Positions 1 to 59,339 of a DNA stretch of 64,000 nt are shown here, in pieces. Location of the stretch: NCBI RefSeq assembly GCF_963921235.1, contig NC_086097.1:84322001-84386000 (forward strand), read 5' to 3'. The position numbers and the translations under genes are program-made. The notes under the pieces were generated by a model. It saw only the letters and a list, made by a program, of their open reading frames with translations. It was not told where the DNA came from and did not search any database. Source of the stretch: Mobula hypostoma (Eukaryota). Each line of letters opens with the position of its first letter. Position 1 is the first letter of the stretch.

Positions 1-253
1 GGCGTTGTCAATAAAACTCAGCTCATTGTCCTAGAAACCCATGGGTATGAGAGACGTGTCCAGTCCATGGGATTTAGCCTTCACACCGGATATTGTTCTG
101 AACAATCTCCATCCAGACATCTGCTCAGCATCAATGGAATCCTGTAATTTTCATGTAAACAACAGGAATTCTGCAGATGCTGGAAATTCAAGCAACACAC
201 ATCAAAGTTGCTGGTGAACGCAGCAGGCCAGGCAGCATCTCTAGGAAGAGGTA

Positions 254-291
254 CAGTCGACGTTTCAGGCCGAGACCCTTCATCAGAACTA
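254..291 (-). ncRNA. Minimal type I hammerhead ribozyme motif (antisense arm)
   Basis: Reverse complement reads TAGTT-CTGATGA-AGG(GTCTCGG)CCT-GAAA-CGTC-GACTG. Confidence 0.72.
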
Positions 292-372
292 ACTGAAGGA
301 AGAGTGAGTAAGAGATTTGAGCTGGCCCTTCCCCCCCCCACTTTCAAATCTCTTACTAACTCTTCCTTCAGT

Positions 373-410
373 TAGTCCTGACGAAGGGTCTTGGCCTGAA
401 ACGTCGACTG
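373..410 (+). ncRNA. Minimal type I hammerhead ribozyme motif
   Basis: TAGTC-CTGACGA-AGG(GTCTTGG)CCT-GAAA-CGTC-GACTG: conserved core, 3-bp stem II, palindromic ACGT in place of stem III, 5-bp stem I. Predicted cut after C405. Confidence 0.75.
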
Positions 411-2560
411 TACCTCTTCCTAGAGATGCTGCCTGGCCTGCTGCGTTCACCAGCAACTTTGATGAATTTTCATGTAGGACATTTTTCATGAGCATCCCGA
501 TCTAGAGATCATAAACATGTTTTCCCTTTTACAAAGTTAACTTTATCTTTTAAAGGGTTGGCATATTATTTTAATGTGTTTGTAATTCAGGGCCACACAA
601 AATACTTGTGACGAATTCCTGGTCGATGTGGTCTTTGATGGGCTCACAAAGAAATCAAGTGACTGTAACCATGAATTATCTTTATTTGAATTGATACACT
701 CTGGATCTCAGGAGATCCCAACATACAATAATTCTATTTAAGAGCACAGCAAGTTCTCTTAATTTGCATAATTATTGGCCAAGGCTCACGCCCTTGGAAA
801 TGGTGCTCCAGAATCTTCTATACCTGAAGGGGTAGTTAGGCCCTGATTTTAACTTCTCGTTGAGGAACAACCCTTTAGACTAAGCAACACAGACAGTCAT
901 CAGTATCTTTGTGCTCAGGTTTGGAGACATGATCCATGACCATCTGTTTGAGGCAACGGTGCCACGAAGTGAGCCACCGTTATCATCACAGCAATTTTAC
1001 CTTTGTTGTAAATCTCATATAAAACCTGTTCATGTTCTGTTTAGTGAATGCAGTTAAAGTGTGTATGGGATGGATGGGGCGTGTGGTGGAGGGAGGGAGG
1101 AAGAAAACGTACGCAAATAAGAAGCCCAGCTTTGTGGGACTGCTAAGGCAGCATTAGGTTATACTGTCCAGTGATTTGTAAATGTTTCAGTGTGACAGAA
1201 GTGTGACAGGTTCTTTTAATATATTTGCTTAGCAATAATGTGCTACGGGATGGAAAACTTGAGCGATGATGCAATTACGTGACCCAGTTTAGATAGGTGA
1301 TGAAAAACCAGGCTGAAATTCACGCAATGGATCCTGGGACATAACTTAAAGAGCCAAATTTTGGAACCAACCAAACTGAAACTAATCCATGGCTATTAAA
1401 CCAGGTGAAAATATCATTAGACAAACCTAGCATTGTTATAGTAACCTGCCAGAAGTTTGCACTAGGAGGGGTGGTGGGCTTCAGACTTTCACAAGTGTAA
1501 ATTCCTTTCCCCTTGTTTCCATTTCTTTCTGCATCTTCAAAAGTTGCATTGGCATTTTAAGGGGGGATTTGCTTCTGTAGATGAGTAACTGCTGTTATTT
1601 CCAGCATCTGAAAGCTGGGGAAGACATGGGTTACTGTTTAAGAGTTCTGATTTTAAGATGTTTGCTTTGGGGCAGTGGTTTCCATCTTGATGTTTTGAAT
1701 GAATATTTTTTTCAAAAATATACTTCATTCATAAAACTTGCAAGTAAACAGTACAGTATTTTCATATGTCACATTCGCTGCACATGATATATTATTCACA
1801 TGTTATATCAGCAGAACGTCATTTTTTTCTTTCACATAAGGGATGGTGTGGGCCATTTTTACTCAGGGCCCTATTTAAGTGGGACCTATATTATAGCCAC
1901 TTTCTTATTATAGCCTTAATGATGGCTGTCCTGAATTTCAGCACGTCCCTGGCACTTGGTCGTGCAGCTGGAGCTGTGCCAGCCAGATGCCCTGACTGCT
2001 TGAACTGTGTCATTCATTCATCAGTTTCCAGTCTCGGCCACTGATGCTGGAAATCTGAAATAAATTTAGAGAAGGATAGGGATCTTGGAACAACTCCATG
2101 TTTCTCTCCACGGATGTCATCTGACCTGTTGAATATTTACAAAGCTTTCTGGTTTTAACGTATTGGCCACAAATCAAGCCTTTTTGCCTTGGGTCCTCTC
2201 TAAGTGAATGTCATTGCTGTTTGAACCCGTGGCCTTCTGAGGTTCTGTCCTTGGTGGTAACTTGGTGGCACTCAATCAAATGTGTGACCTTATCAGTCAC
2301 CGCTTTGAAGCTATATCCAGATTTCTTTGTTTTGTTGCTCTCCTGGGTCCTACCGCATGTTGGCTGTCCCAACATTCACACAATGAATGTTAAATGATAA
2401 CACTTACGGGATTGTAGTGCTTGTATTGTTTGGAGATGGAGCAGGATGGGCTTTTGACAGATCAAGCAGAGCAATAGAAACATCTTGTTAGCCATTTCCT
2501 TTGTAATGCATAGCAGTTGCTTAAATTGACGTAGGGTGAAGATAATTGCTTTATTTACAG

Positions 2561-4561: not shown

Positions 4562-5143
4562 AACAGAAGAAATTCTGCAGATGCTGGAAATCCAAAGCAA
4601 TACACTCAAGCTGCTGGAGGAACTCTGCAGGTCAGGCAGCATCTAGGGGAATGAATAAACAGTTGACGTTTCGGGCTGAGACTCTTCTTCGGGACTGAAA
4701 AGGAAGGGCGAAGATGCCAGACTAAAATGGTGGAGGAAGGGGAAGGAGGATTGCTAGAAGGTGACAGGTGAAGCCAGGTGGGTAGGAAAGATAAAGGGCT
4801 GGAGAAGAAGGAATCTAATAGGAGAGGAAAGTGGGCCATAGGAGAAAGGGAAGGAGGAGGGGAGTCAGGGGGAGGTAATAGGCAGGTGAGAAGAGGTAAG
4901 AGGCCAGAGTGGGAAATAGAAGAAGAGGGGAGTAAGAGGGAGTTTTTTTTTTATGGGAAGGAGAAATTGATATTCACGCCATCAGGTTGGAGAGTACCAA
5001 GACGGAATATAAGGTGTTGGTCCTCCACCCTGGGGGTGGCCTCATCTTGGCACAAGAGGAGCCATGGACCGGCATGTCGGAACAGGAATGGGAATTAAAA
5101 CGTTTGGCCTCCGGGAAGTTCTGTTTTTGGCGGATGGAGCGGC
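4562..5143 (-). mobile_element. Penelope-like element 3' portion (GIY-YIG C-terminal remnant and terminal repeat)
   Basis: Minus-strand frames give FNSHSCSDMPVHG and ..QHLIFRLGTLQPDGVNINF, typical of vertebrate PLE GIY-YIG ends. These are followed by a pyrimidine-rich UTR and the hammerhead repeat (core mutated to CCGAAGA, 4660-4697). Confidence 0.8.
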
Positions 5144-6209: not shown

Positions 6210-7029
6210 AACATAGAACATTATAATAGTACAGCACAGTACAGGCCCTTTGGCCCACAATGTAGTGCCAACCCTTAAACCCTGCCTTCCATATAACCCC
6301 CCACCTTAAATTCCTCCATATACCTGTCTAGCAGTCTCTTAAATTTCAGTAGTGTATCTGCCTCCACCACAGACTCAGGCAGTGCATTCCACACACCAAC
6401 CACTCTCTGAGTAAAAAACCTTACTCTAATATCCCCCTTGAACTTCCCATCCCTTACCTTAAAGCCATGTCCTCTTGTATTGAGCAGTGGTGCCCTGGGG
6501 AAGAGATGCTGGCTGTCCACTCTATCTATTCCTTTTAATATCTTGTATACCTCTATCATGTCTCCTCTCATCCTCCTTCTTTCCAAAGAATAAAGCCCTA
6601 GCTCCCTTAATCTCTGATCATAATGCATACTCTCTAAACCAGGCAGCATCCTGGTAAATCTCCTCTGTACCCTTTCCAATGCTTCCACATCCTTCCTATA
6701 GTGAGGCGACTAGAACTGGATGCAGTACTCCAAGTGTGGCTTAACCAGAGTTTTATAGAGCTGCATCATTACATCGCGACTCTTAAACTCTGTCCCTCGA
6801 CTTATGAAGGCTAACACCCCATAAGCTTTCTTAACTGCCCTATCTACCTGTGAGGCAACTTTCAGGGATCTGTGGACATGTACTCCAGATCCCTCTGCTC
6901 CTCCACACTACCAAGTACCCTGCCATTTACTTTGTACTCTGCCTTGGAGTTTGTCCTTCCAAAGTGTACCATCTCACACTTCTCCGGGTTGAACTCCACC
7001 TGCCACTTCTCAGCCCACTTCTGCATCCT
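6210..7029 (-). mobile_element. CR1 LINE 3' fragment
   Basis: ORFs ALERVQRRFTRMLPGL..LYSLERRRMRGDMIEVYKI..TRGH..FFTQRVVGVWNALP and WAEKWQVEFNPEKCEMVHFGR are diagnostic of the CR1 ORF2 C-terminus. CATAGAA-type tail at 6210. Confidence 0.9.
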
Positions 7030-9456: not shown

Positions 9457-9494
9457 CAGTTGACATTTCAGGTCGAGACCCTTCATCAGGACTG
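9457..9494 (-). ncRNA. Hammerhead motif in a PLE fragment (~9375-9605)
   Basis: Reverse complement CAGTC-CTGATGA-AGG(GTCTCGA)CCT-GAAA-TGTC-AACTG. Core intact, mismatch at the first pair of stem I. Confidence 0.55.
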
Positions 9495-12258
9495 GAAAGG
9501 AAGGGAGCAGAAGCCAAAGTAAGAAGGTGGGGGGGGGTGGAATTACCAGAAGTTAGAAAAATTGATGTTCATGCCCAACAGGTTGGAGGCTACCCAGACA
9601 AAATGCTGAATTCCTCTGACCTGGAGCCAGAAACCTACAGGCATCTCCAGTTGTTCTCAGCTTGACCCTGTGGGCACTACCACAGGAGATCCATGAACTC
9701 AATGGCTGACTGAAGGTTCTAGGTTGCCCTTCTCAGAACATCCAAGTCACTTCCTTCAAGTATAATTTGTTGACTGTGAAGTTACTTTTGTAGGAAATGC
9801 AGCAGTTACTTTATGCATGGTAAGATGCCACAATCAGGAATGTGGTAGTGACCAGGCTGCCTGCTTTAGGAATGTTGACTGAGGATTCAAAAATCTGAGG
9901 ACTCTTTTAAAAAAAAATTATATGAATGAGCTTTTAAATCATCATGTGGTCCTACTGCTGGTAAATGGAATTAATATAGATGTGTATGGGGTGGTCAGCT
10001 TAGTCATGGTGGGCTGAATGCTATTAATTATTTGCTAGGACACAGGATAAATACCTGCTCTTCAGAATAATACCATGGCAACTTTTGCTTCCAACTGTGG
10101 GGACAGAGGCAGTCTCAGATGAATGCCTCATCCAAAACTGAGCATCGCTGATGGGGAACCATTTCCTCGTTTTGCACTGAAGCAAGAGTTGAACTCACAA
10201 CTTTCTACTTCCAAGAACCTACTTTTGCAACATCCACAGTCATACAGAACATTCGGCCCACTGACTAGGAGACTCCCATTCTCCCTACATTCTTTTCAAC
10301 TCCCTCCAGATTGACTTACACAGCTGAGGCAATTTCCAGTGACAAATTGCTTGCCAATTAATTTATTTTGGGTGCAGGGGGAATCTGAGCACCTGGAAGA
10401 AACCCATGCAGTATTTGGGAGGGCGTGCTACTCCACATAGACAGGATCAGGAATGAACACAGGTCATTGGGGTTGTGAGGCAGTAGCTGTACCACTCTTC
10501 TGAAAATGAAACTTATTTTAACAACAAAGCAAGTTAATCCAAGGAGCGTGCTTCTTTGGTGAATTGGTCATTTGCTTTGTTGGTGGAAGAAGTAAATTCA
10601 AAAAGAAAAAGTTTTTAAATTAGTCAGATATGGCAGCTTTTAGCATCTTGTAGAACTTGGTTTAAAATTGCAGACTCTGGCTATTGCTTTAAAGGACAAG
10701 GATCATACTGAATATTGGGCTACAGGTTATGTATTTTGGGGATTTCCATGCAAAGATACTTTGCATTGGAAGGATTTGTGTTGCATGTGATGCAGTTAGA
10801 TGAGCCTAGTTTTCTAGCCACCTGCCTGTATCTGGACAAAGTGCTTTACGTACTGAACTGCATACACTGGAAATCTGAACCAAACACAAGAGAATGTTGA
10901 AAATACCCAGCAGGTCTGGCATCATCTGTATATGGAGAAATAGTTAATGCTTCATTTCAAATGGTTCTGGGTTTAAACTTTACTTAGACTCTTGAATGGT
11001 CATTAACTTAAAACATTAATCTATTTCTCTCTCTCCTGTTCTTATGATTCCCATGGTTAGTGATTCAGCATAACTTTGACCCTGTCAAGTTTCAGTGACA
11101 TCACAGTTCCCTTCGAAAGAAAAAAATAAAAGCAAAAATAATTTAGCAGGTCAGGCAGCAGCCGTAGAGGGAGAAGCAGAGTTAATGTTTTCGCTTGTTA
11201 CCCCTTTATCAGAACTCAAATCATTAAGTGTTTTTCACCGCTTGTCCTGTTGAGTATTTCCAATATTTTCTGTACTTGGTACAACACTTTGAATTCCAGT
11301 TGCTGGGCAACTTTATTGAAAAGCAATAGAGTACATAATTGCAACCAGAATCAGATTCCAAACACTTGCAGTAATTGTTGTTAACGGTAATCATTCTGCA
11401 TGAGAAAATAGCAAACGTTTTTTGCCATTGCTGATTACAGTTGCTTCATGTGGATTGGAGGTAGATCTGTAAGGCAAAAGAGCAGTGGGGGGAAGTCAGA
11501 CTATAAGACAGCTCTAAAAAGTCATCACTGAATCATTGGGCCAGATGGCGTGATGCAATGCTTGACTCTGTGTAAGGAATTTAGTAATCCTTGGATCATG
11601 GAGGATTTTGTCTGTTGTATCTTAATGTGCACAGAGAATCTAGTCAAGTGGCCTTCAGTCAGTCTAGATAATTTAATGGTGATCAAAACTCGTGAAAGTG
11701 TTAAGCCAGTTTCAGGTGAATTCAAATAACAGCATCTTGATCAAATATTACCAGAATTATCACAGTGTATTTGCTTTTCTTTCTTTTGCTTCTCCCTGAA
11801 GCAAACTGCATACCAACTGAACAAGCCATCCAGGTTGTATTGGATAAATTTCTTTTCGGAGAATGGTATTCAGTGTTAACTCTTAATTGACAGAATTCAA
11901 GAAGCTTGTGCTAAATAGTCAAATGACTTATTTTTATTACAGGGCAGGTAGCTCAACATGACATCCACAGATTTGTTTTTCTTTGGTTTCACAGATTAGT
12001 ATTAAGGAATGGGAACTCCATCTGACTGTAGCCTCGCCCTTCTTAACAGAACCAATTATTTTCTGGTCTGGTTTTAAGTCCAATATAAACGTGCTGATTC
12101 AACACCAGCATGGACTGAACCCAAGACTTGATGATTTTTATGTTGTTTCTGGAGAAGTTACCAACAGTCAGAACTGTGGCAGGGGAATTGCCACAATTGC
12201 CTTTAACTTACTGAGTGTCTACTTATAGCCCTTATTTTATAACTGATAATCAGGAATA

Positions 12259-12781
12259 CGAGGGGTGATTGATAAGTTCGTGTCCTAAGGTAGAAGGAGT
12301 CAATTTTAGAAAATGTAGCACATTTATTTTTCAACATAGTCCTCTCCTACATGTGCACACTTAGTCCAGCGGTCGTGGAGCATACGGATCCCTTCTTTGT
12401 AGAAGTCGGCGTCTTGGACCTCCAAAAGTGGTCCACAGCAGGGGTGATTGATAAGTTTGTGGCCTAATGTAGAAGGAGATGAGTTATTAACTTGAAACTT
12501 TCTGCATAATCACTCAAAGAGTTGAACTGCACATACATGTAACGAGAGCTGTATATCTCATCTCCTTCTACCTTAGGCCACGAACTTATCAATCACCCCG
12601 GCTGTGGACCACTTTTGGAGGTCCAAGATGCCGACTTCTACAAAGAAGAGATTCATATGCTCCACGACTGCTGGACTAAGTGTGTAAATGTAGGAGGGGA
12701 CTATGTTGAAAAATAAATGTGCTAGGTTTTCTAAAATTGACTCCTTCTACCCTAGGCCACAAACCTATCAATCACCCCTCG
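12259..12781. mobile_element. Mariner-derived fold-back MITE
   Basis: TA|CGAGGGGTGATTGATAAG...CCTATCAATCACCCCTCG|TA with ~225-bp inverted arms. Each arm encodes a mariner transposase C-terminus (DFYKEGIRMLHDRWTKC..VG.DYVEK*). Extra internal TIR copies at ~12440 and ~12599. Confidence 0.9.
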
Positions 12782-13096
12782 TAAATTCAGTATTTGTTTC
12801 ACTACTTACATACTTAATTACAACATTGAAGGCATCCATTTCAGTCCTTTAAGTCCATGACAGCTCACAGAGCAATCCCATTCTTCCACTATTTTTCCCT
12901 ATTCTCCAATGTTTCACAAAACAAAGAACAAGGGTCTCGGCCCTAAATGTTGACTGTTTACTCTTTTCGATAGATGCTGCCTGGCCTGTTGAGTTCCGCT
13001 AGCATTTTGTGTGTGTTGAAAGAACAGATGGGCCATTTGGCCCATTATGTTGTGCAAGTCTTGATGCTGGTTCATACGTCAAGTCATCAACAGCAT

Positions 13097-13419: not shown

Positions 13420-15590
13420 TCCACTCCCTTCGTATTCATGTGTCTATCTAAAAGCCTTTTAAACTCCACCAAACTGCCTGCTTGCACTCCTACCCCTGGT
13501 AACGTATCCCAGGCATTGACCACCGTCTCCATGGAAAAAGAAACTTCCCTTTTATCCTCTGTTGTTTGACATTTCTACCCTGGGGAACAGATTCTGTCTG
13601 TCTACCCTATCTATACTTCATAATTAAAACAAAACCTCTATCAGGTTTCCTCTCGGTCTCTGACACTCTAGGGAGAAGAACCCAAGTTTGCCTAACCTTT
13701 CTTTAATCCAGGCTGCCTTGGGCTTTATCCCCAATCTCCACATCCTTTTTTATAATGAGGCAACCAGAACTGCACTCAATTCTCCAAGCTGCAGCATGGC
13801 TTCCTCATTGAAGTACTCAACACTTCTACTAATGAAGGCAACCATTCTATATGTCTTCCTTACCACCTTATCCACTTTCAGTGAACTATGGACCTGGATC
13901 CTTGGATCCCTCTGTACTTCAATGCTATTAAGGGGCCTACCATTAACTTTTCTCCTTCCATTTGACCTCCCAACGTGCAAGAGCTCCCACTTTCCTGGAT
14001 TAAATGCCATCTCCCACTTCTCTGCCCATATTTATAACTGATTTATATTCCCCTGTGTTCTTTGATAGTCCTTAACACAGTCCACAATTCTACCGATCTT
14101 GGAGCTATTTTCAAACTTGCTAATCCATCAAGCTATGTAGGTATCAGAAGTCCCAGCAATGATCCTTGCAGAACATCACTGGCCACAGACCTTCAGACAG
14201 AATATCAGCCCTACTCCCTGGACTAGGATTTCCAAATACAAACTTGCAGTTTACCCTGAATTATATTCTGAGTCAACCTACCATGAGGGACCTTTCCAAA
14301 TGCCCTACTAAACTCCATGTAGGTAATGTCTATGGCCGTATCCCCATCAAAGTCCTTTTTCACCTCCTCCAAAAACTGAACCAAGTTTGTAGGGCATAAC
14401 CTGCCCAGCACAAAGCGAAGCAGACTGTACCTAAGCAGACTATGCCTTTCCAACTGTGCATAAGTCCTATTCCTCAGTATCCTCCTCATTAGCTTCTCTA
14501 CCACTGACATGATGCTCACTGGCCCATGATTACCTGGTTTAACCCTATCTCCCTTCTTGAACAAAGGCACAACATTTATTACTCTGTTGGGACCTCACTT
14601 CTTGCTAGTGAGGACACAAATATCCTTGCAACACACAGAGAACTTGGCAGGCCAGGCAGCATCTATCAAAAAGACTAAACAGTTGACGTTTTGGGCTGAG
14701 ACCCTTCATCAGTTCCTCCGGCATTTTGTGTGTGTTGCTCAGATTTCCAGCATCTGCTGATTTTCTCATTTGTGACAAAAATATCCTCATCAGAGCTCCT
14801 TCAGTCTCTTCACTTGCTTCTTTCAGTATTGTGGGATATATGCCATCATGCCATGTGGATTCTTCCATCTTAATGCTTTTCAGAAGACTCAAAACTATCT
14901 CCTCTTCAATCTCAAATGAACATTAGCATGCCCCGTGCTATTTTCGCTATCCTCCAATTTCTTCTCCTCGGTAAATACCTTCACATTGTACTCATTTATT
15001 ACCTCACCCACTTGCTTTGACTCTAAGCATAAATCCCCTCTTTTATCCTTGAGCGGACCTACTCTGTATAAATTACCTTGGGATTCTCCTTGATACTGCT
15101 GGCCAGGGGCATTTCATGGCCCATTTTGGCCTTCCTAATCGCCCATTTGAACACTTCCCTACTATATGTTCTTCAATGACATAGTCTTTTTAGCATTCTA
15201 AACCCATGCCTGCTTTCTATTGTTTTCTGACTAAATTTAGGACCTCTCGGGTCATCCAAGGTTCCCTTTCCTTACCCATCCTTGTCCTTACTTCTTACCA
15301 GAACATGCCGATCCTGAGCTCTGCTCAGCTGGTCTTTAAACTACTGCCACTGCTCAGACATAGACTTGCCTGGTAGCAGCTGTTCCTAACCAATGCTCCT
15401 TATTCTGTCATAATTTGCCCTCCCCCAATTTAATAATTTCCCACAAAATCCAAATTTATCCTTACTCCTCTCTTAAAACATAATAAGTTGTGGTCACTAT
15501 TCCCAGAATGCTCACCAACTCTCCAGTCTATCACCTGGCCTGGCTAATTTCCCAAAACTAGGTCCGGCATCTTCCTTCTTCTTGTTGGAA
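13420..15590 (-). mobile_element. Decayed CR1 LINE ORF2 with internal deletions
   Basis: ORF fragments PLFKKGDRVKPGNHGPVSIMSVVEKLM, TNLVQFLEEV..DITYMEFSRAFGKVPHGRL, MAFNPGKWELLHVGR and DGIYPTILKE. Confidence 0.85.
14627..14773 (+). mobile_element. Short PLE insertion with inverted 5' segment, inside CR1
   Basis: A minus-oriented repeat (14627-14712) abuts a plus-oriented 3' end with tail. Flanked by GACACAAATATCCT (14613-14626) and GACAAAAATATCCT (14774-14787). Confidence 0.75.
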
Positions 15591-30246: not shown

Positions 30247-30288
30247 AGGAGTCCTGATGAAGGATTTCAGCTTGAAATGTCGACTCCT
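30247..30288 (+). ncRNA. Minimal hammerhead ribozyme motif in a short PLE fragment (fragment extends to ~30346)
   Basis: AGGAGTC-CTGATGA-AGG(ATTTCAG)CTT-GAAA-TGTC-GACTCCT: 7-bp perfect stem I and intact core, followed by the PLE repeat gatgctgcctgacgtgctgagttcctccagcatt. Confidence 0.65.
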
Positions 30289-30957
30289 TACTTCTTTCTA
30301 GATGCTGCCTGACGTGCTGAGTTCCTCCAGCATTCTGTTTGTGTTACCCAAGTGCCCTTTCCATTCATTGCAATAGTTTGCAAATTGATTTGAAACCAAT
30401 TATGTCAGAACTTGTCTGCTTAATGTTGGCAGGGGTACAAGTGCAAAAGTGTTCTGTTCCAGCAAAGTCATGACTGGGAAGCTTCTGGGAATGCAGCGAA
30501 GTTCCTTATAAACTGTTTCTAATTAGTATCATGTTGGCATTCTTTAATCTGATTCCGGTCTTAGACGAGAAAGCAGATTCCAATAATTATATTAAAAATA
30601 TGTTGAGATTGACATTAGTGAGCAAATTGCACTGTGCAGCTGGAAAGAGGGAGCTCATGTTTCTGCCATTATTTTCTTCAATTGGACTGATATACACATT
30701 GCAAAAATATTCCTGAACTAAGTCACTTTATGAATCTTGAGAACAATGGACCTGTTTTTTTTAGGCTCAAAGCACTGTGTGTATGCCAGCAAGATGTTGT
30801 AACTATTGGAAGGGATAAAATTTAAATTAGTCTGACATGAAAGCTATTTGGCTAAAAGTACCAAAATGGGATTAAGCCTGGCAACTGGCATGTAAACGCA
30901 AGGGGAAAAAAGCCGGAATTTTATGAATTGTTTTCTTTCTCTGCTCCTTCTGAACAG

Positions 30958-31147
30958 ACAAACCCTCCTGCGACCAAGAGAGGCAAGCAGCTTTGGAGGA
31001 AACTCACCAGTACCCGAGAGATGGCATCTTCATTCCAGAGTGTGCTGGTGCAGGGCTCTACAAGCCAGTGCAGTGCCACCAGTCGACTGGGTACTGCTGG
31101 TGCGTCTTGGTGGACATTGGACGCCCCATTCCTGGGACCTCCACCAG
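30958..31147 (+). CDS. SMOC1: SMOC1 internal exon encoding the second thyroglobulin type-1 domain
   Basis: Polypyrimidine tract plus cag acceptor (..ttttctttctctgctccttctgaacag|) and AG|gtaagt donor. 190 bp, phase 1 to phase 2, translating xKPSCDQERQAALEETHQYPRDGIFIPECAGAGLYKPVQCHQSTGYCWCVLVDIGRPIPGTSTR with the QC..TGYCWCV thyroglobulin motif. DQERQ, PRDG and QCHQST match SMOC1 rather than SMOC2 as I recall them. This frame is not in the ORF track. Confidence 0.95.
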
Positions 31148-31232
31148 GTAAGTGCACATTATCTTTGGAGGTGATGGAGAGGGATGCCAGGTGAGTAAAA
31201 CTGAGCTGGAGTAAGTCTTGTCTAGGTGGCTC

Positions 31233-31625: not shown

Positions 31626-32854
31626 AATTGTGGTATTTTTACAAATAAAACCTTGACCTCCTGAGGTATTAACTTAAGCTCAAACTATGAAATCTAGGTA
31701 AAGGAAGTTTGCAAGCTTGTATGTAAACCCCTGCTGTATCTCTGCCATGTGACGTGAAAGTGATGTTTGAATCATTTAGGCTGTGTGCATTGCGCTGCAG
31801 CGTTAATGTGCTGTTGAGTGAACACTCTCTCCCCTTTGTATGTTGGTAACCATTCCTAATTCTGCCCATACCTGCAAGACACATGGGTGCGTTGGACATT
31901 TCTTGGAAACTGACCATGGGTTGTCGCTCAAGGACCTCTCAGTAACTCAATAGTCAGGGGCATCAGCACGGTAGTGTGCTGTAACCTTCTCCAACTGTCA
32001 GTGTGGTAATTGTTTTGTACGATTTTGACCTCCATGAGTACTGCCATATCTTAAGAACTTACGAAATAGAACAGTACAGCACAATATAGATCCTTTGGTC
32101 CACAATGTTGTGTTGACCCAGACAGACCTGCTCCACCATCAATCTAATCCTTCCCTCCTACATCAGTCAGAACCTTCAGTTTTTTTTTCTTACATCCATG
32201 TAACTATCTACAAGTGTTTTAAATGTCCCTGTTGTATCAGCTTCTACCGCCACTCCAGACAGAGAGTGAGGCACCCACCACTCTCCGTGTAAGGAACCTA
32301 CCTCTACCATCTGCCCTAATCTTACCCCCACTCACCTTAAATAGATATCCTCTGGTATTGGCCATTACTGTCCTGGGTAAGAAGTGCTGGCTGTCAACTT
32401 TATCCATGCCTCTCATAGTCTTGTGCTTCTCTTATAATGGTGCGATTAAAAAGGAGCAAATAACCTTTGCAGCACACACAAAATGCTCACTGGCCTGCTG
32501 AGTTCCTCCAGCATTTTGGGTGTTTTGCTTTGATTTCCAGCGCTTGCAGATTTTCTCTTGTTTGTAAATACTGGTGTACTTTAAAGGTTACTATTATTGC
32601 ATAAGACATAATGGTCACCTTGAAACACGTTACAAATTTAGCCTTGTCCACAGCAATCTGTTGTTTACTATGCCAGCCAAGCACCTCTCTAAACCTTCTT
32701 AATAACTAGATAAAGTTGCCTTTGATTAGCTGGGCCACACAGACCAGGATAGACAAAGGTTCAACGTTAGCTTCAGTGTGCCCACATTCAGTGAAGAAGG
32801 AATTAAACCAGATTAGGGTTCCCAGACAGAAAGAGAGAGAATGCGTATCAGTTT

Positions 32855-49518: not shown

Positions 49519-50497
49519 AAATCAAGTCAAGTCAAGTCAAGTTTATTGTCATTTCAACCATAAGCTGCTGGTACAGTACACAGTAAAAACAAAACAATGT
49601 TTCTCCAGGACCATGGTGCTACATGAAACAACACAAAACTACACTGGACTATGTGAGACAACACTAAACTACACTAGACTACGTGAAACAACACTAAACT
49701 ACACTACACTATCTGAGACAGCACGAGGCTACACTACTCTATGCAAAACAACATTAAAAACTACACTAGACTACAGACCTGCACAGGACTACATAAAGTG
49801 CACAAAACAGTGCAGGACAGTACAATAATTAATAAACAAGACAATAGGCACATTAGAGGGCAAATTACAATATAATAATAAATGACATAGATGTCAGTCT
49901 AGACTCTGGGTATTGAGGAGTCTGATGACTTGGGGGAAGAAACTGTTGCACAGTCTGGTCGTGAGAGCCCAAGTGCTTCAGGACCTTTTGCCAGATGGCG
50001 GGAGGGAGAAGAGTTTGTATGAGGGGTGCGTGGGGTCCTTCACAATACCGTTAACTTTGCGGATTCAGTGTGTGGTGTAAATGTCTGTAATAGTGGGAGG
50101 AGAGACCCCGATGTTCTCAGCTGACCTCACTATCCGCTGCAGGGTCTTGCGATCCGAGACGGTGCAATTCCCAAACCAGGCGGTCATGCAGCTGCTCAGG
50201 ATGCTCTCAATACAACCTCTTTAGAATGTGGTGAGAATGGGGGGTGGGAGATGGACTTTTCTCAGCCTTGGCAGCAAGTAGAGACGCTGCTGGGCTTTCT
50301 TGGCTATGGAGCTGGTGTTGAGGGACCAGGTGAGATTCTCCACCAGGTGAACACCAAGAAATTTGGTCTGTTAACGATCTCTACGGAGGAGTCGTCAATG
50401 TTCAGTGGAGAGTGGTCGCTCTGTGCTCTCCCGAAGTCAACAACCATCTCTTTTGTTTTGCTCACATTCGGAGACGGGTTGTTGGTTCTGCACCACC
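49519..50497 (-). mobile_element. Rex/Babar-type LINE 3' fragment
   Basis: (TCAAG)4 tail. The minus strand encodes WCRTNN.S.NVSKTKEMVVDFGR..HSPLNID.SSVEIV... Confidence 0.8.
49619..49770. repeat. 30-bp minisatellite, 5 imperfect units, in the LINE 3' UTR
   Basis: Units such as ctacatgaaacaacacaaaactacactgga / ctatgtgagacaacactaaactacactaga / ctacgtgaaacaacactaaactacactaca. Confidence 0.85.
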
Positions 50498-50821: not shown

Positions 50822-52157
50822 GTAACAAATGCAAGACGATGGAGGAACTCCTAGAGAGGTGGCATCTATAGAAATGAGTAAAGAGTCGATGTTTTGGGCC
50901 AAGACCCTTCATCAGCACCAGAAAGGTAGGGGAAAACGCCAGAATAAAACCATATAACAATTACAGCATGGAAACAGGCCATCTCGGCCCTTCTAGTCCG
51001 TGCCGGACTCTTACTCTCACTTAGTCCCACCGACCTGCATTCAGCCCATAACCTTCCATTCCTTTCTGTCCATATATCTATCCAATTTAACTTTAAACGA
51101 GAACATTGAACCTGCCTCAACCATTTCTGCTGGAAGCTCGTTCCACACAGCTACCACTCTCTGAGTAAAGAAGTTCCCCCTCAAGTTACCCCTAAACTTT
51201 TGCCCTTTAACTCTTAACTCATGTCCTCTTGTTTGAATTTCCCCCACTCTCAATGGAAAAAGCCTATCCATGTCAACTCTATCTATCCCCCTCTCAATTT
51301 TAAGTACCTCTATTAAGTCCCCTCTCAACCTTCTACGCTCCAAAGAATAAAGACCCAACTTGTTCAAGGGTGGGGGGGGGTGGAGATGAAGTAAGAATCT
51401 TGGAGGTGATAGGTGGAGAACGCAAATGACTGGAGAAGAAGGAATCTGATAGGAGATGAGAGTGGACCATGGGAGAAAGGGAAGGAGGGGCACCACAGGG
51501 AGGCGATAGTTAGGTGAGGAGAAGAGACAAGAGACCAGAGTGGGGAAATGAAGAAGAGGGGAGGGGGAGGGGTAATATCACTGGGAGAAATTGATGTTCA
51601 TGCCATCAGGTTGGAGGCTAACTGGAAGGAATAGGAGGTGTTGCTTCTTCACGCCTCATTGTGGCAGAGGAGGCCATGGACTGACATTTCATAATGGGAA
51701 TGGGCATAGGGTTTAAAATTGTTAAAAGATTAGTAGGGAGGGATGAATGAACAAGGGAATCAGGGAGTCATGGGGGGGGGTGAGGGGAAGTGGTCCCCGC
51801 TGAAAACAGAGTTGGGGGAGACGTAAAGATGTGTTTGGTGGTAGACGTTGCAGAGAATGATGTGTTGGATGCAGGGGTTCGTGGGGTGGTAGGTGAGGAC
51901 AAGAGGAACTCTGTCTCCATTAAGGCAGCAGGAAGACAGGGTGAGTGAAGACGTTCGGGAAATGGAGGAGATGCAGGTCAATGTAGCATCCAGTGGTGGA
52001 GGAAGAGAAACACTGTTCTTTGAAGGAGGAGGACATTGCTGATATCCTGGAAAGGAAAGCTCCATCCTGGGAACAGATGCGAGAGAGATGAAATGATTGA
52101 GAAAAGGGTATAGAATTTTATAGGAGATAGGATGGGAAGAGGTATGGCTAAAAACCA
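50822..52157 (-). mobile_element. Penelope-like element (linker and GIY-YIG remnants, terminal repeat), interrupted by CR1
   Basis: Minus-strand DRVPLVLTYHPTNPCIQHII (PLE RT-EN linker motif), GIY-YIG end at ~51585-51720, terminal repeat at 50822-50947 with GAAA mutated to AAAA. Confidence 0.8.
50948..51367 (-). mobile_element. Young CR1 3' fragment inside the PLE
   Basis: Uninterrupted LGLYSLERRRLRGDLIEV..TRGHELRV..FFTQRVVAVWNELP. AACCATAT tail unit. Confidence 0.9.
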
Positions 52158-58902: not shown

Positions 58903-59302
58903 AACCATATAACCATTTAACAATTACAGCAGGGACACAGGCCATCTCAGCCCTTCTAGTCCATGCCAAACTCTTATTCTCACCTCGTCCCACCGACCTG
59001 CACTCAGCCCATAACCCTCCATTCCTTTCCTGTCCATATAGCTATCCAATTTAGCCTTAAATGACAGCATCGAACCTGCCTCAACCACTTCTGTTGGAAG
59101 CTCGTTCCACACAGCTACCACTCTCTGAGTAAAGAAGTTCCCCCTCATGTTACCCCTAAACTTTTGCCCTTTAACTCTCAACTCGTGTCCTCTTGTTTGA
59201 ATCTCCCTCACTCTCAATGGAAAAAGCCTATCCATGTCAACTCTATCTATCCCTCTCATAATTTTAAATACCTCTATCAAGTTCCCCCTCAACCTTCTAC
59301 GC
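58903..59302 (-). mobile_element. Young CR1 3' fragment (same subfamily as 50948-51367)
   Basis: Open RGNLIEVFKIMRGIDRVDMDRLFPLRV..TRGHELRVKGQKFRGN.RGNFFTQRVVAVWNELP and (AACCATAT)-type tail. Confidence 0.9.
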
Positions 59303-59339
59303 GTCTAATGTATTGTTAGTTTCACACTGTAAAACTCAG

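Follow-up and report, generated by a model that had tools for sequence, protein, structure and literature searches.

A 307-base insert near the left end of the window (the whole stretch of DNA analysed here, 64,000 nucleotides long) contains a minimal hammerhead ribozyme motif on each strand within a fold-back, and it raises the question of what it represents: a mobile unit in its own right, a ribozyme that lies in a host gene and is controlled by its own antisense copy, or the residue of a retroelement integration. The explanation that we favor, with a probability of about 0.85, is that the insert consists of two 5′-truncated 3′ ends placed head to head by one integration of an endonuclease-bearing Penelope-like element (PLE), and that the hammerheads are inactive passengers.

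Layout of the insert and its hammerhead motifs

The insert (158–464) is bracketed by a perfect 12-bp target-site duplication (TSD), as the initial annotation had described: 146–157 and 465–476 agree at 12/12 positions and cannot be extended. On the + strand of the 64-kb window the 12-mer is found at these two places alone, and the − strand lacks it. Such bracketing would arise by chance with a probability of about 2e-7 for fixed ends and 9e-5, or about 1e-4, when 10 nt of slack is allowed on each side. The two arms (200–320 and 344–464) are 121 bp long and complementary at 117/121 positions, with four mismatched pairs at 272/392, 282/382, 287/377, and 306/358. The arms are thus reverse complements as first stated, but they do not fill the insert, because 158–199 is a 42-nt extension (referred to as the tail) present only in the left arm and 326–343 is present only in the right arm. 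The apparent 23-nt loop between the arms resolves into a 5-nt linker, a 5-mer that recurs at 179 and 210, and 18 nt of element sequence that matches the loose-end consensus of the family contigs continuing behind 320 at 16/18 positions by eye. The inner head-to-head junction is not palindromic, and the insert is bounded on either side by an element 3′ end. There is no open reading frame, in agreement with the initial annotation, and only the last 139–163 nt of each element copy is left. The features are:

146–157, no strand: left TSD, 12 bp, by sequence comparison
158–199, − strand: tail, the longer 3′ terminus of the element, 42 nt, left arm only, from contig loose ends and window copies
200–320, − strand: left arm, 5′-truncated pLTR-like 3′ end of the element, from arm alignment and contigs
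254–291, − strand: minimal type-I hammerhead, core 286–259, U·G inner stem I pair, U at 11.1; antisense in SMOC1 pre-mRNA
321–325, no strand: 5-nt linker at the head-to-head junction, by sequence comparison
326–343, + strand: 18 further nt of the element, right arm only, 16/18 by eye to the loose-end consensus
344–464, + strand: right arm, second 5′-truncated copy with a tail-less terminus, from arm alignment
373–410, + strand: minimal type-I hammerhead, core 378–405, predicted cut after C405, U at 11.1; sense in SMOC1 pre-mRNA
465–476, no strand: right TSD, 12 bp, by sequence comparison

Sequencing can generate fold-backs, and the structure might accordingly be an assembly artefact, or else a chance symmetry. 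The exact TSD, the four arm differences, and the recovery of the left junction in a second organism and another study speak against both, and we consider their probability practically nil.

Each arm holds a complete hammerhead core (378–405 on the + strand and 286–259 on the − strand) with CUGANGA, GAAA, and U16.1-H17, which upholds the proposal of one minimal type-I motif per strand at the positions first given. Stem III is a loopless ACGU palindrome (15.2–16.2), and C405 is position 17 in the standard numbering. Two details of the original description need correction. The minus motif had been presented as equivalent to the plus motif, but the copies differ, with U·G replacing C-G at the core-adjacent stem I pair (287) of the minus motif. 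Stem II had been drawn as AGG/CCT, a helix with P of about 0.02 when 365–420 is folded alone; the favored arrangement is a bulged A with pairing of 386–389 to 394–397 (P 0.69–0.77). The conserved G10.1-C11.1 pair, which is typical of these ribozymes and not part of the search descriptor, is absent from both arms, where 11.1 is U (267 and 397). In the contigs, the C allele at this position makes up approximately 31%, 35%, 78%, and 69% of the summed depth in runs X1, X5, X13, and X14, respectively; U is the majority in organisms A (approximately 69%) and B (approximately 65% of summed depth), and C dominates in D and E. Because U is the majority allele in A and B, we read it as probably a subfamily trait, and the family may include a successful source lineage with a ribozyme weakened by U instead of C at 11.1.

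With an E-value limit of 10, Rfam yielded 28 matches for 1–2000 and one for 360–430, and neither set included any hammerhead model. Sub-threshold Rfam matches to miRNA hairpins reflect the fold-back and were rejected as evidence of a miRNA. Elsewhere in the window, two older single copies (9462–9489 and 30254–30281) retain a complete hammerhead core; the copy at 30254 is sense to SMOC1 and lies approximately 700 nt before an exon.

The repeat family, its Penelope-like relative, and the age of the insert

The arms correspond to the 3′ end of a repeat that is very abundant. A search with nhmmer gave 19 hits in the window, 17 of them beyond the two arms, and the contigs placed on window positions 1–343 numbered 109,278, 66,792, 21,787, and 15,252 in the four runs, from four organisms, nearly all of them on 157–324 in the depth table. 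The run data are contigs only, taken from filtered records, and their summed depth is not taken as copy number. Unrelated A-rich loose ends precede position 157 in 531 contigs in X1, 507 in X5, and 133 in a third run. Because hundreds of contigs carry such unrelated ends, we take 158 as a natural terminus of the element, and the window copies at 4562, 32562, and 60419 terminate at the same point as the tail.

The connection to PLEs, which the initial annotation had proposed, was made through an older relative within the window:

4562–5094, − strand: older, longer relative, 77% identical over 149 columns, running from tail to hammerhead to a broken PLE-endonuclease-like C-terminal frame

A purine/pyrimidine-skewed stretch precedes the broken frame, and the frame gave 21 protein matches at E up to 0.001. 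Among them, P0131 shows by eye both reverse transcriptase (RT) motifs and the endonuclease motif Y-C-x-x-C-x-x-C...YIGET, and it aligned back onto 4966–5061 with an E value of 4e-9. Cysteines between GIY and YIG define the PLE endonuclease, according to the available text of Craig 2021. Several of the other matches resemble host gene models with an element-derived stretch, and P0126 and P0127 are unrelated repeat proteins. Pfam returned no family for the 4562–5094 frame and no RT or GIY-YIG family for P0131 or the others of the 21, and when the 47-aa endonuclease-like frame was compared with proteins by word index, seven candidates emerged, none at E up to 0.001. Judged by these alignments, the case for a PLE origin of the arms, which runs via the 77%-identical relative, is good but indirect, and the original proposal stands on it.

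Two other stretches of the window resemble PLE proteins, namely a fragment at 51838–52117 that matches the RT thumb region of the PLE-like protein P0131 (E 1e-13) and a degraded stretch in the 23147 region (+ strand) that resembles a PLE endonuclease C-terminus. Repeats of other kinds are present as well. A fold-back at 12257–12783 has 231-bp arms that are 92% complementary, internal end-motif repeats, and TA at both ends, and we take it to resemble a Tc1/mariner-type miniature element. The frames at 6275–6709, 51041–51577, and 58924–59304 resemble the 3′ end of LINE ORF2, presumably of the CR1/L2 type, and 49619–49768 is a tandem array with 10/20/30-nt periodicity.

The left junction of the insert gives a bound on its age. 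A contig of organism B, a close relative, covers 1–179 with six differences and ends 22 bases inside the insert, where an empty site would match only 5/22 of the insert bases. Because this contig spans the left junction, the insertion predates the split from organism B; the lack of contig cover at 337–343 in B carries no weight. Contigs on the flank are also available from organisms D and E. Compared with the family majority, each arm differs at 2/121 positions (282 and 287 in the left arm, 358 and 392 in the right arm), and two of the four differences are CpG transitions. The insert had been called young, which is correct relative to the other window copies but not in an absolute sense, given the junction held in common with organism B and the two differences per arm. 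By these comparisons the insert is recent among the window copies yet not newly inserted, and it has probably decayed neutrally since.

Preferential conservation of the hammerhead core across copies, named at the outset as something that a functional motif should show genome-wide, was not seen among the older copies in the window. We scored 15 of the 17 hits, the other two being without the motif region. The 11-nt core was kept at 136/163 positions, a figure lowered by copies truncated inside the motif, and the downstream sequence at 251/296, and the core is therefore no better preserved than its surroundings downstream. G12 was kept in 5/15 copies and the whole core in 2/15. None of the 26 differences listed for the run data affects an invariant core base; variation of about 9–12% or more is seen at N7, in the CpG of stem III, and at C17. 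This pattern is compatible with selection and with youth alike and does not separate them.

A fold-back probably made at integration

The initial annotation had regarded the insert as a non-autonomous unit, and one reading is that the whole 307-bp fold-back is MITE-like or retrozyme-like and moves as such. The clean TSD, the absence of an open reading frame, and the near-perfect terminal symmetry would suit such a unit, and opposite-strand joints do occur elsewhere in the genome (at least six, with 15 joints listed of 61). These joints, however, lie at scattered and differing places, and the inner junction of the insert behaves as single-copy sequence: its contig depth in X1 is 20.6 at 325–336 and 11.8 at 337–343, compared with 14.9 for the unique flank and values in the millions for the arms, and the family contigs extend beyond 320 into more of the element. 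A second fold-back of the same repeat group was found in the window:

14627–14773, no strand: older fold-back with other breakpoints and a 14-bp duplication with one mismatch

Its tail-less arm reaches through the hammerhead and its tailed arm is approximately 60 nt long. Because the inner junction is single-copy, the joints are scattered, and the breakpoints at 14627–14773 differ, the fold-back appears to have been made anew at integration. A MITE would have terminal inverted repeats at both very ends and many copies with a shared internal junction, whereas the left arm is offset by the 42-nt tail and the junction stands at single-copy depth in the contigs. Retrozymes, as far as the accessible text of bioRxiv 10.64898/2026.07.22.740005 describes them, consist of tandem repeats on one strand, with at least two motifs in each RNA, whereas the motifs of the insert lie on opposite strands. 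We therefore consider it extremely unlikely that the fold-back is a mobile unit.

A tailed copy at 32443–32567 (+ strand) is preceded by an apparent short inverted stub and has a weak 9-bp duplication. The TSD search at this copy and at 4562–5143 gave only 9-mers with one mismatch, which were not counted as support.

How one PLE integration could leave two inverted 3′ ends is suggested by biochemical work on an anole element, in which the PLE protein nicks and extends both strands and prefers AT-rich targets (Frangieh et al. 2024, PMC11167929); the available part of the same work also reports two RT start sites that bound the tail. At the insert, an element protein with RT and GIY-YIG activities would have made a 12-nt staggered cut in AT-rich DNA. 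Reverse transcription would then have started from the 3′ end of each target strand, in one case at the tail terminus and in the other 42 nt further inward, and the cDNAs would have stopped after approximately 163 and 139 nt and been joined. An inverted stub of such length has one motif on each strand because the hammerhead lies 60–130 nt from the 3′ ends. Extending this to the family, we lean slightly toward the view that fold-back stubs are footprints of double priming, in which a dimeric PLE protein cuts both strands and starts once on each, using the pair of start sites on either side of the tail.

The same anatomy could instead have been produced by snap-back self-priming of one cDNA, or from an antisense template, in place of two primings. 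This alternative concerns the mechanistic step only and otherwise overlaps with the PLE integration described above. Palindromes at inverted junctions have been read as self-priming (Arkhipova et al. 2013, PMC3846280, in its accessible portion), the arms are near-identical, and a later deletion or template switch could turn a symmetric junction into an asymmetric one. However, neither arm of the insert is a plain copy of the other. Because the tail is found only in the left arm and 326–343 only in the right arm, the arms were probably templated independently; the fold-back at 14627–14773 is asymmetric in the same way, and the junction of the insert is no palindrome. Snap-back is rather unlikely. 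Our literature search, which mostly omitted subscription papers, found nothing on PLE integration by twin priming. If double priming is correct, the numerous young copies would allow a genome-wide test in rays of how inverted PLE ends are formed, and the asymmetry of the insert bears on the field's standing question of PLE integration.

Predicted folding, the host gene, and comparison with known systems

The computed folds, which are equilibrium predictions on the insert alone or with short flanks, bear out the original proposal that the antisense arm sequesters the sense motif. The insert hairpin has a predicted energy of about −242 kcal/mol and a fold z-score of −30 (100 shuffles). The + motif alone (365–420) forms stems I and II with P of about 0.7; the probability of stem I falls below 0.01 within 344–464, and that of stems I and II is 0.000 in 254–464 and longer sequences. 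Forcing the hammerhead fold in the presence of the left arm carries a penalty of 67 kcal/mol, and the + motif pairs with the earlier-made antisense arm in 7/7 transcript prefixes with probabilities of 0.77–0.95. When two copies are cofolded, an intermolecular ACGU helix is predicted (−33.3 vs 2 × −11.6 kcal/mol). Any one transcript contains a single sense hammerhead and therefore lacks a dimer partner in cis.

The host strand is set by the coding sequence of SMOC1:

30957–31148, + strand: first SMOC1 coding exon in the window, aa 224–287 of P0001

This exon encodes 64 aa that are 100% identical to SMOC1 proteins named from two rays. It was the only SMOC1 exon given by tblastn, and an exact 6-mer scan added a second, so that SMOC1 is represented in the window by aa 224–287 and 287–315 only. 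Both exons lie on the + strand, which confirms the orientation of SMOC1 in the initial annotation and the + motif as sense. The insert probably lies in a long SMOC1 intron before exon 30957–31148 if the gene is intact upstream; the closest SMOC1 exon within the window is approximately 30 kb away. During transcription of SMOC1, the antisense arm would precede the sense motif, which is predicted to base-pair with it upon emerging, and the paired arms would form a long intronic hairpin to be removed by splicing. Processing of this hairpin by ADAR or Dicer is plausible by analogy with inverted Penelope copies that yield siRNAs in Drosophila (PMC3681739, in the text available).

These predictions invite the idea that the insert has been co-opted, either as a hairpin that gates a self-cleaving ribozyme or as a substrate of ADAR or Dicer with a role in SMOC1 regulation or in silencing of the family. 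In its favor, a complete core lies in sense orientation in SMOC1 pre-mRNA, the hairpin is very stable, the junction is common to organism B, inverted Penelope copies are a source of siRNAs in Drosophila, and the hammerhead of the anole PLE, which requires the element protein, does cleave in its presence (PMC11167929, available text). The same source describes cleavage as dispensable for insertion in vitro. Against co-option, the sense motif has no dimer partner in cis and U at 11.1 is found in both arms, and for minimal motifs in vitro monomer cleavage was not detectable and dimer cleavage was low (Cervera and De la Pena 2014, PMC4209133, in the part available). Moreover, the arm differences resemble ordinary decay, the distance to the nearest SMOC1 exon in the window is large, sharing with a close relative requires no selection, and incidental editing would not prove function. 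Although a ribozyme gated by its own antisense copy within a developmental gene would be of real interest, we regard co-option as very unlikely. Folding and published activities suggest that both motifs are likely inactive passengers of the PLE integration. The self-inhibition proposed initially is most likely a by-product of insertion geometry and not a design, since the geometry follows a known PLE insertion pattern and dual minimal hammerheads on opposite strands, 100–700 bp apart, were reported in 2014 (PMC4209133).

Literature searches for Penelope-like hammerheads in stingray found nothing, and a search for Penelope retrotransposons in Chondrichthyes returned no paper devoted by title to the family of the insert. 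The structure itself corresponds closely to EN+ PLE insertion units. In the accessible texts, these show an inverted pLTR with an optional 31-bp tail on one pLTR and a 9–10-bp TSD (PMC3846280), or an inverted 5′-truncated copy with a 30–40-bp tail at one end (Craig et al. 2021, 10.1101/2021.04.23.441226), and the inverted pLTR, one-sided tail, and TSD are also described in PMC8969392. Like them, the insert has head-to-head inverted 5′-truncated copies, a one-sided tail, an AT-rich target, a TSD of variable length (12 bp at the insert and 14 bp at 14627–14773), and a 3′ repeat (pLTR) with a type-I hammerhead. It differs in that its copies are reduced to the last 139–163 nt with no open reading frame, its tail of 42 nt is slightly above the published 30–40, its junction is asymmetric with a 5-nt linker and no palindrome, and its host is a ray.

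The motifs themselves match the metazoan PLE minimal hammerheads, as presented in the available part of PMC4209133, in the full core, the extra base between 9 and 10.1, the palindromic 15.2–16.2 without loop 3, and the 5-bp stem I, whereas stem II has 3–4 bp compared with 7–8 bp in the Schistosoma families and G10.1-C11.1 is replaced by G·U (or A-U) in both arms. With PAc, a Poseidon element of Anolis carolinensis (PMC11167929), the insert shares two 3′ termini a tail apart, an AT-rich target with ATT ending one primer strand, and, in the minus arm, an ATG in the core approximately 25–26 nt before the cut site; it has no open reading frame, and the accessible text on PAc does not reconstitute inverted insertions. 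The non-LTR retrozymes (10.64898/2026.07.22.740005, available text) are likewise ORF-less and PLE-derived with type-I hammerheads, but the motifs of the insert are on opposite strands instead of in tandem on the same strand. The insert thus probably belongs to a known kind, being an inverted PLE insertion of minimal size whose hammerheads are passengers, and an ordinary dead one. As a single locus it matters little; it is useful as a clean and hardly decayed specimen of the end product with an inverted copy and a tail.
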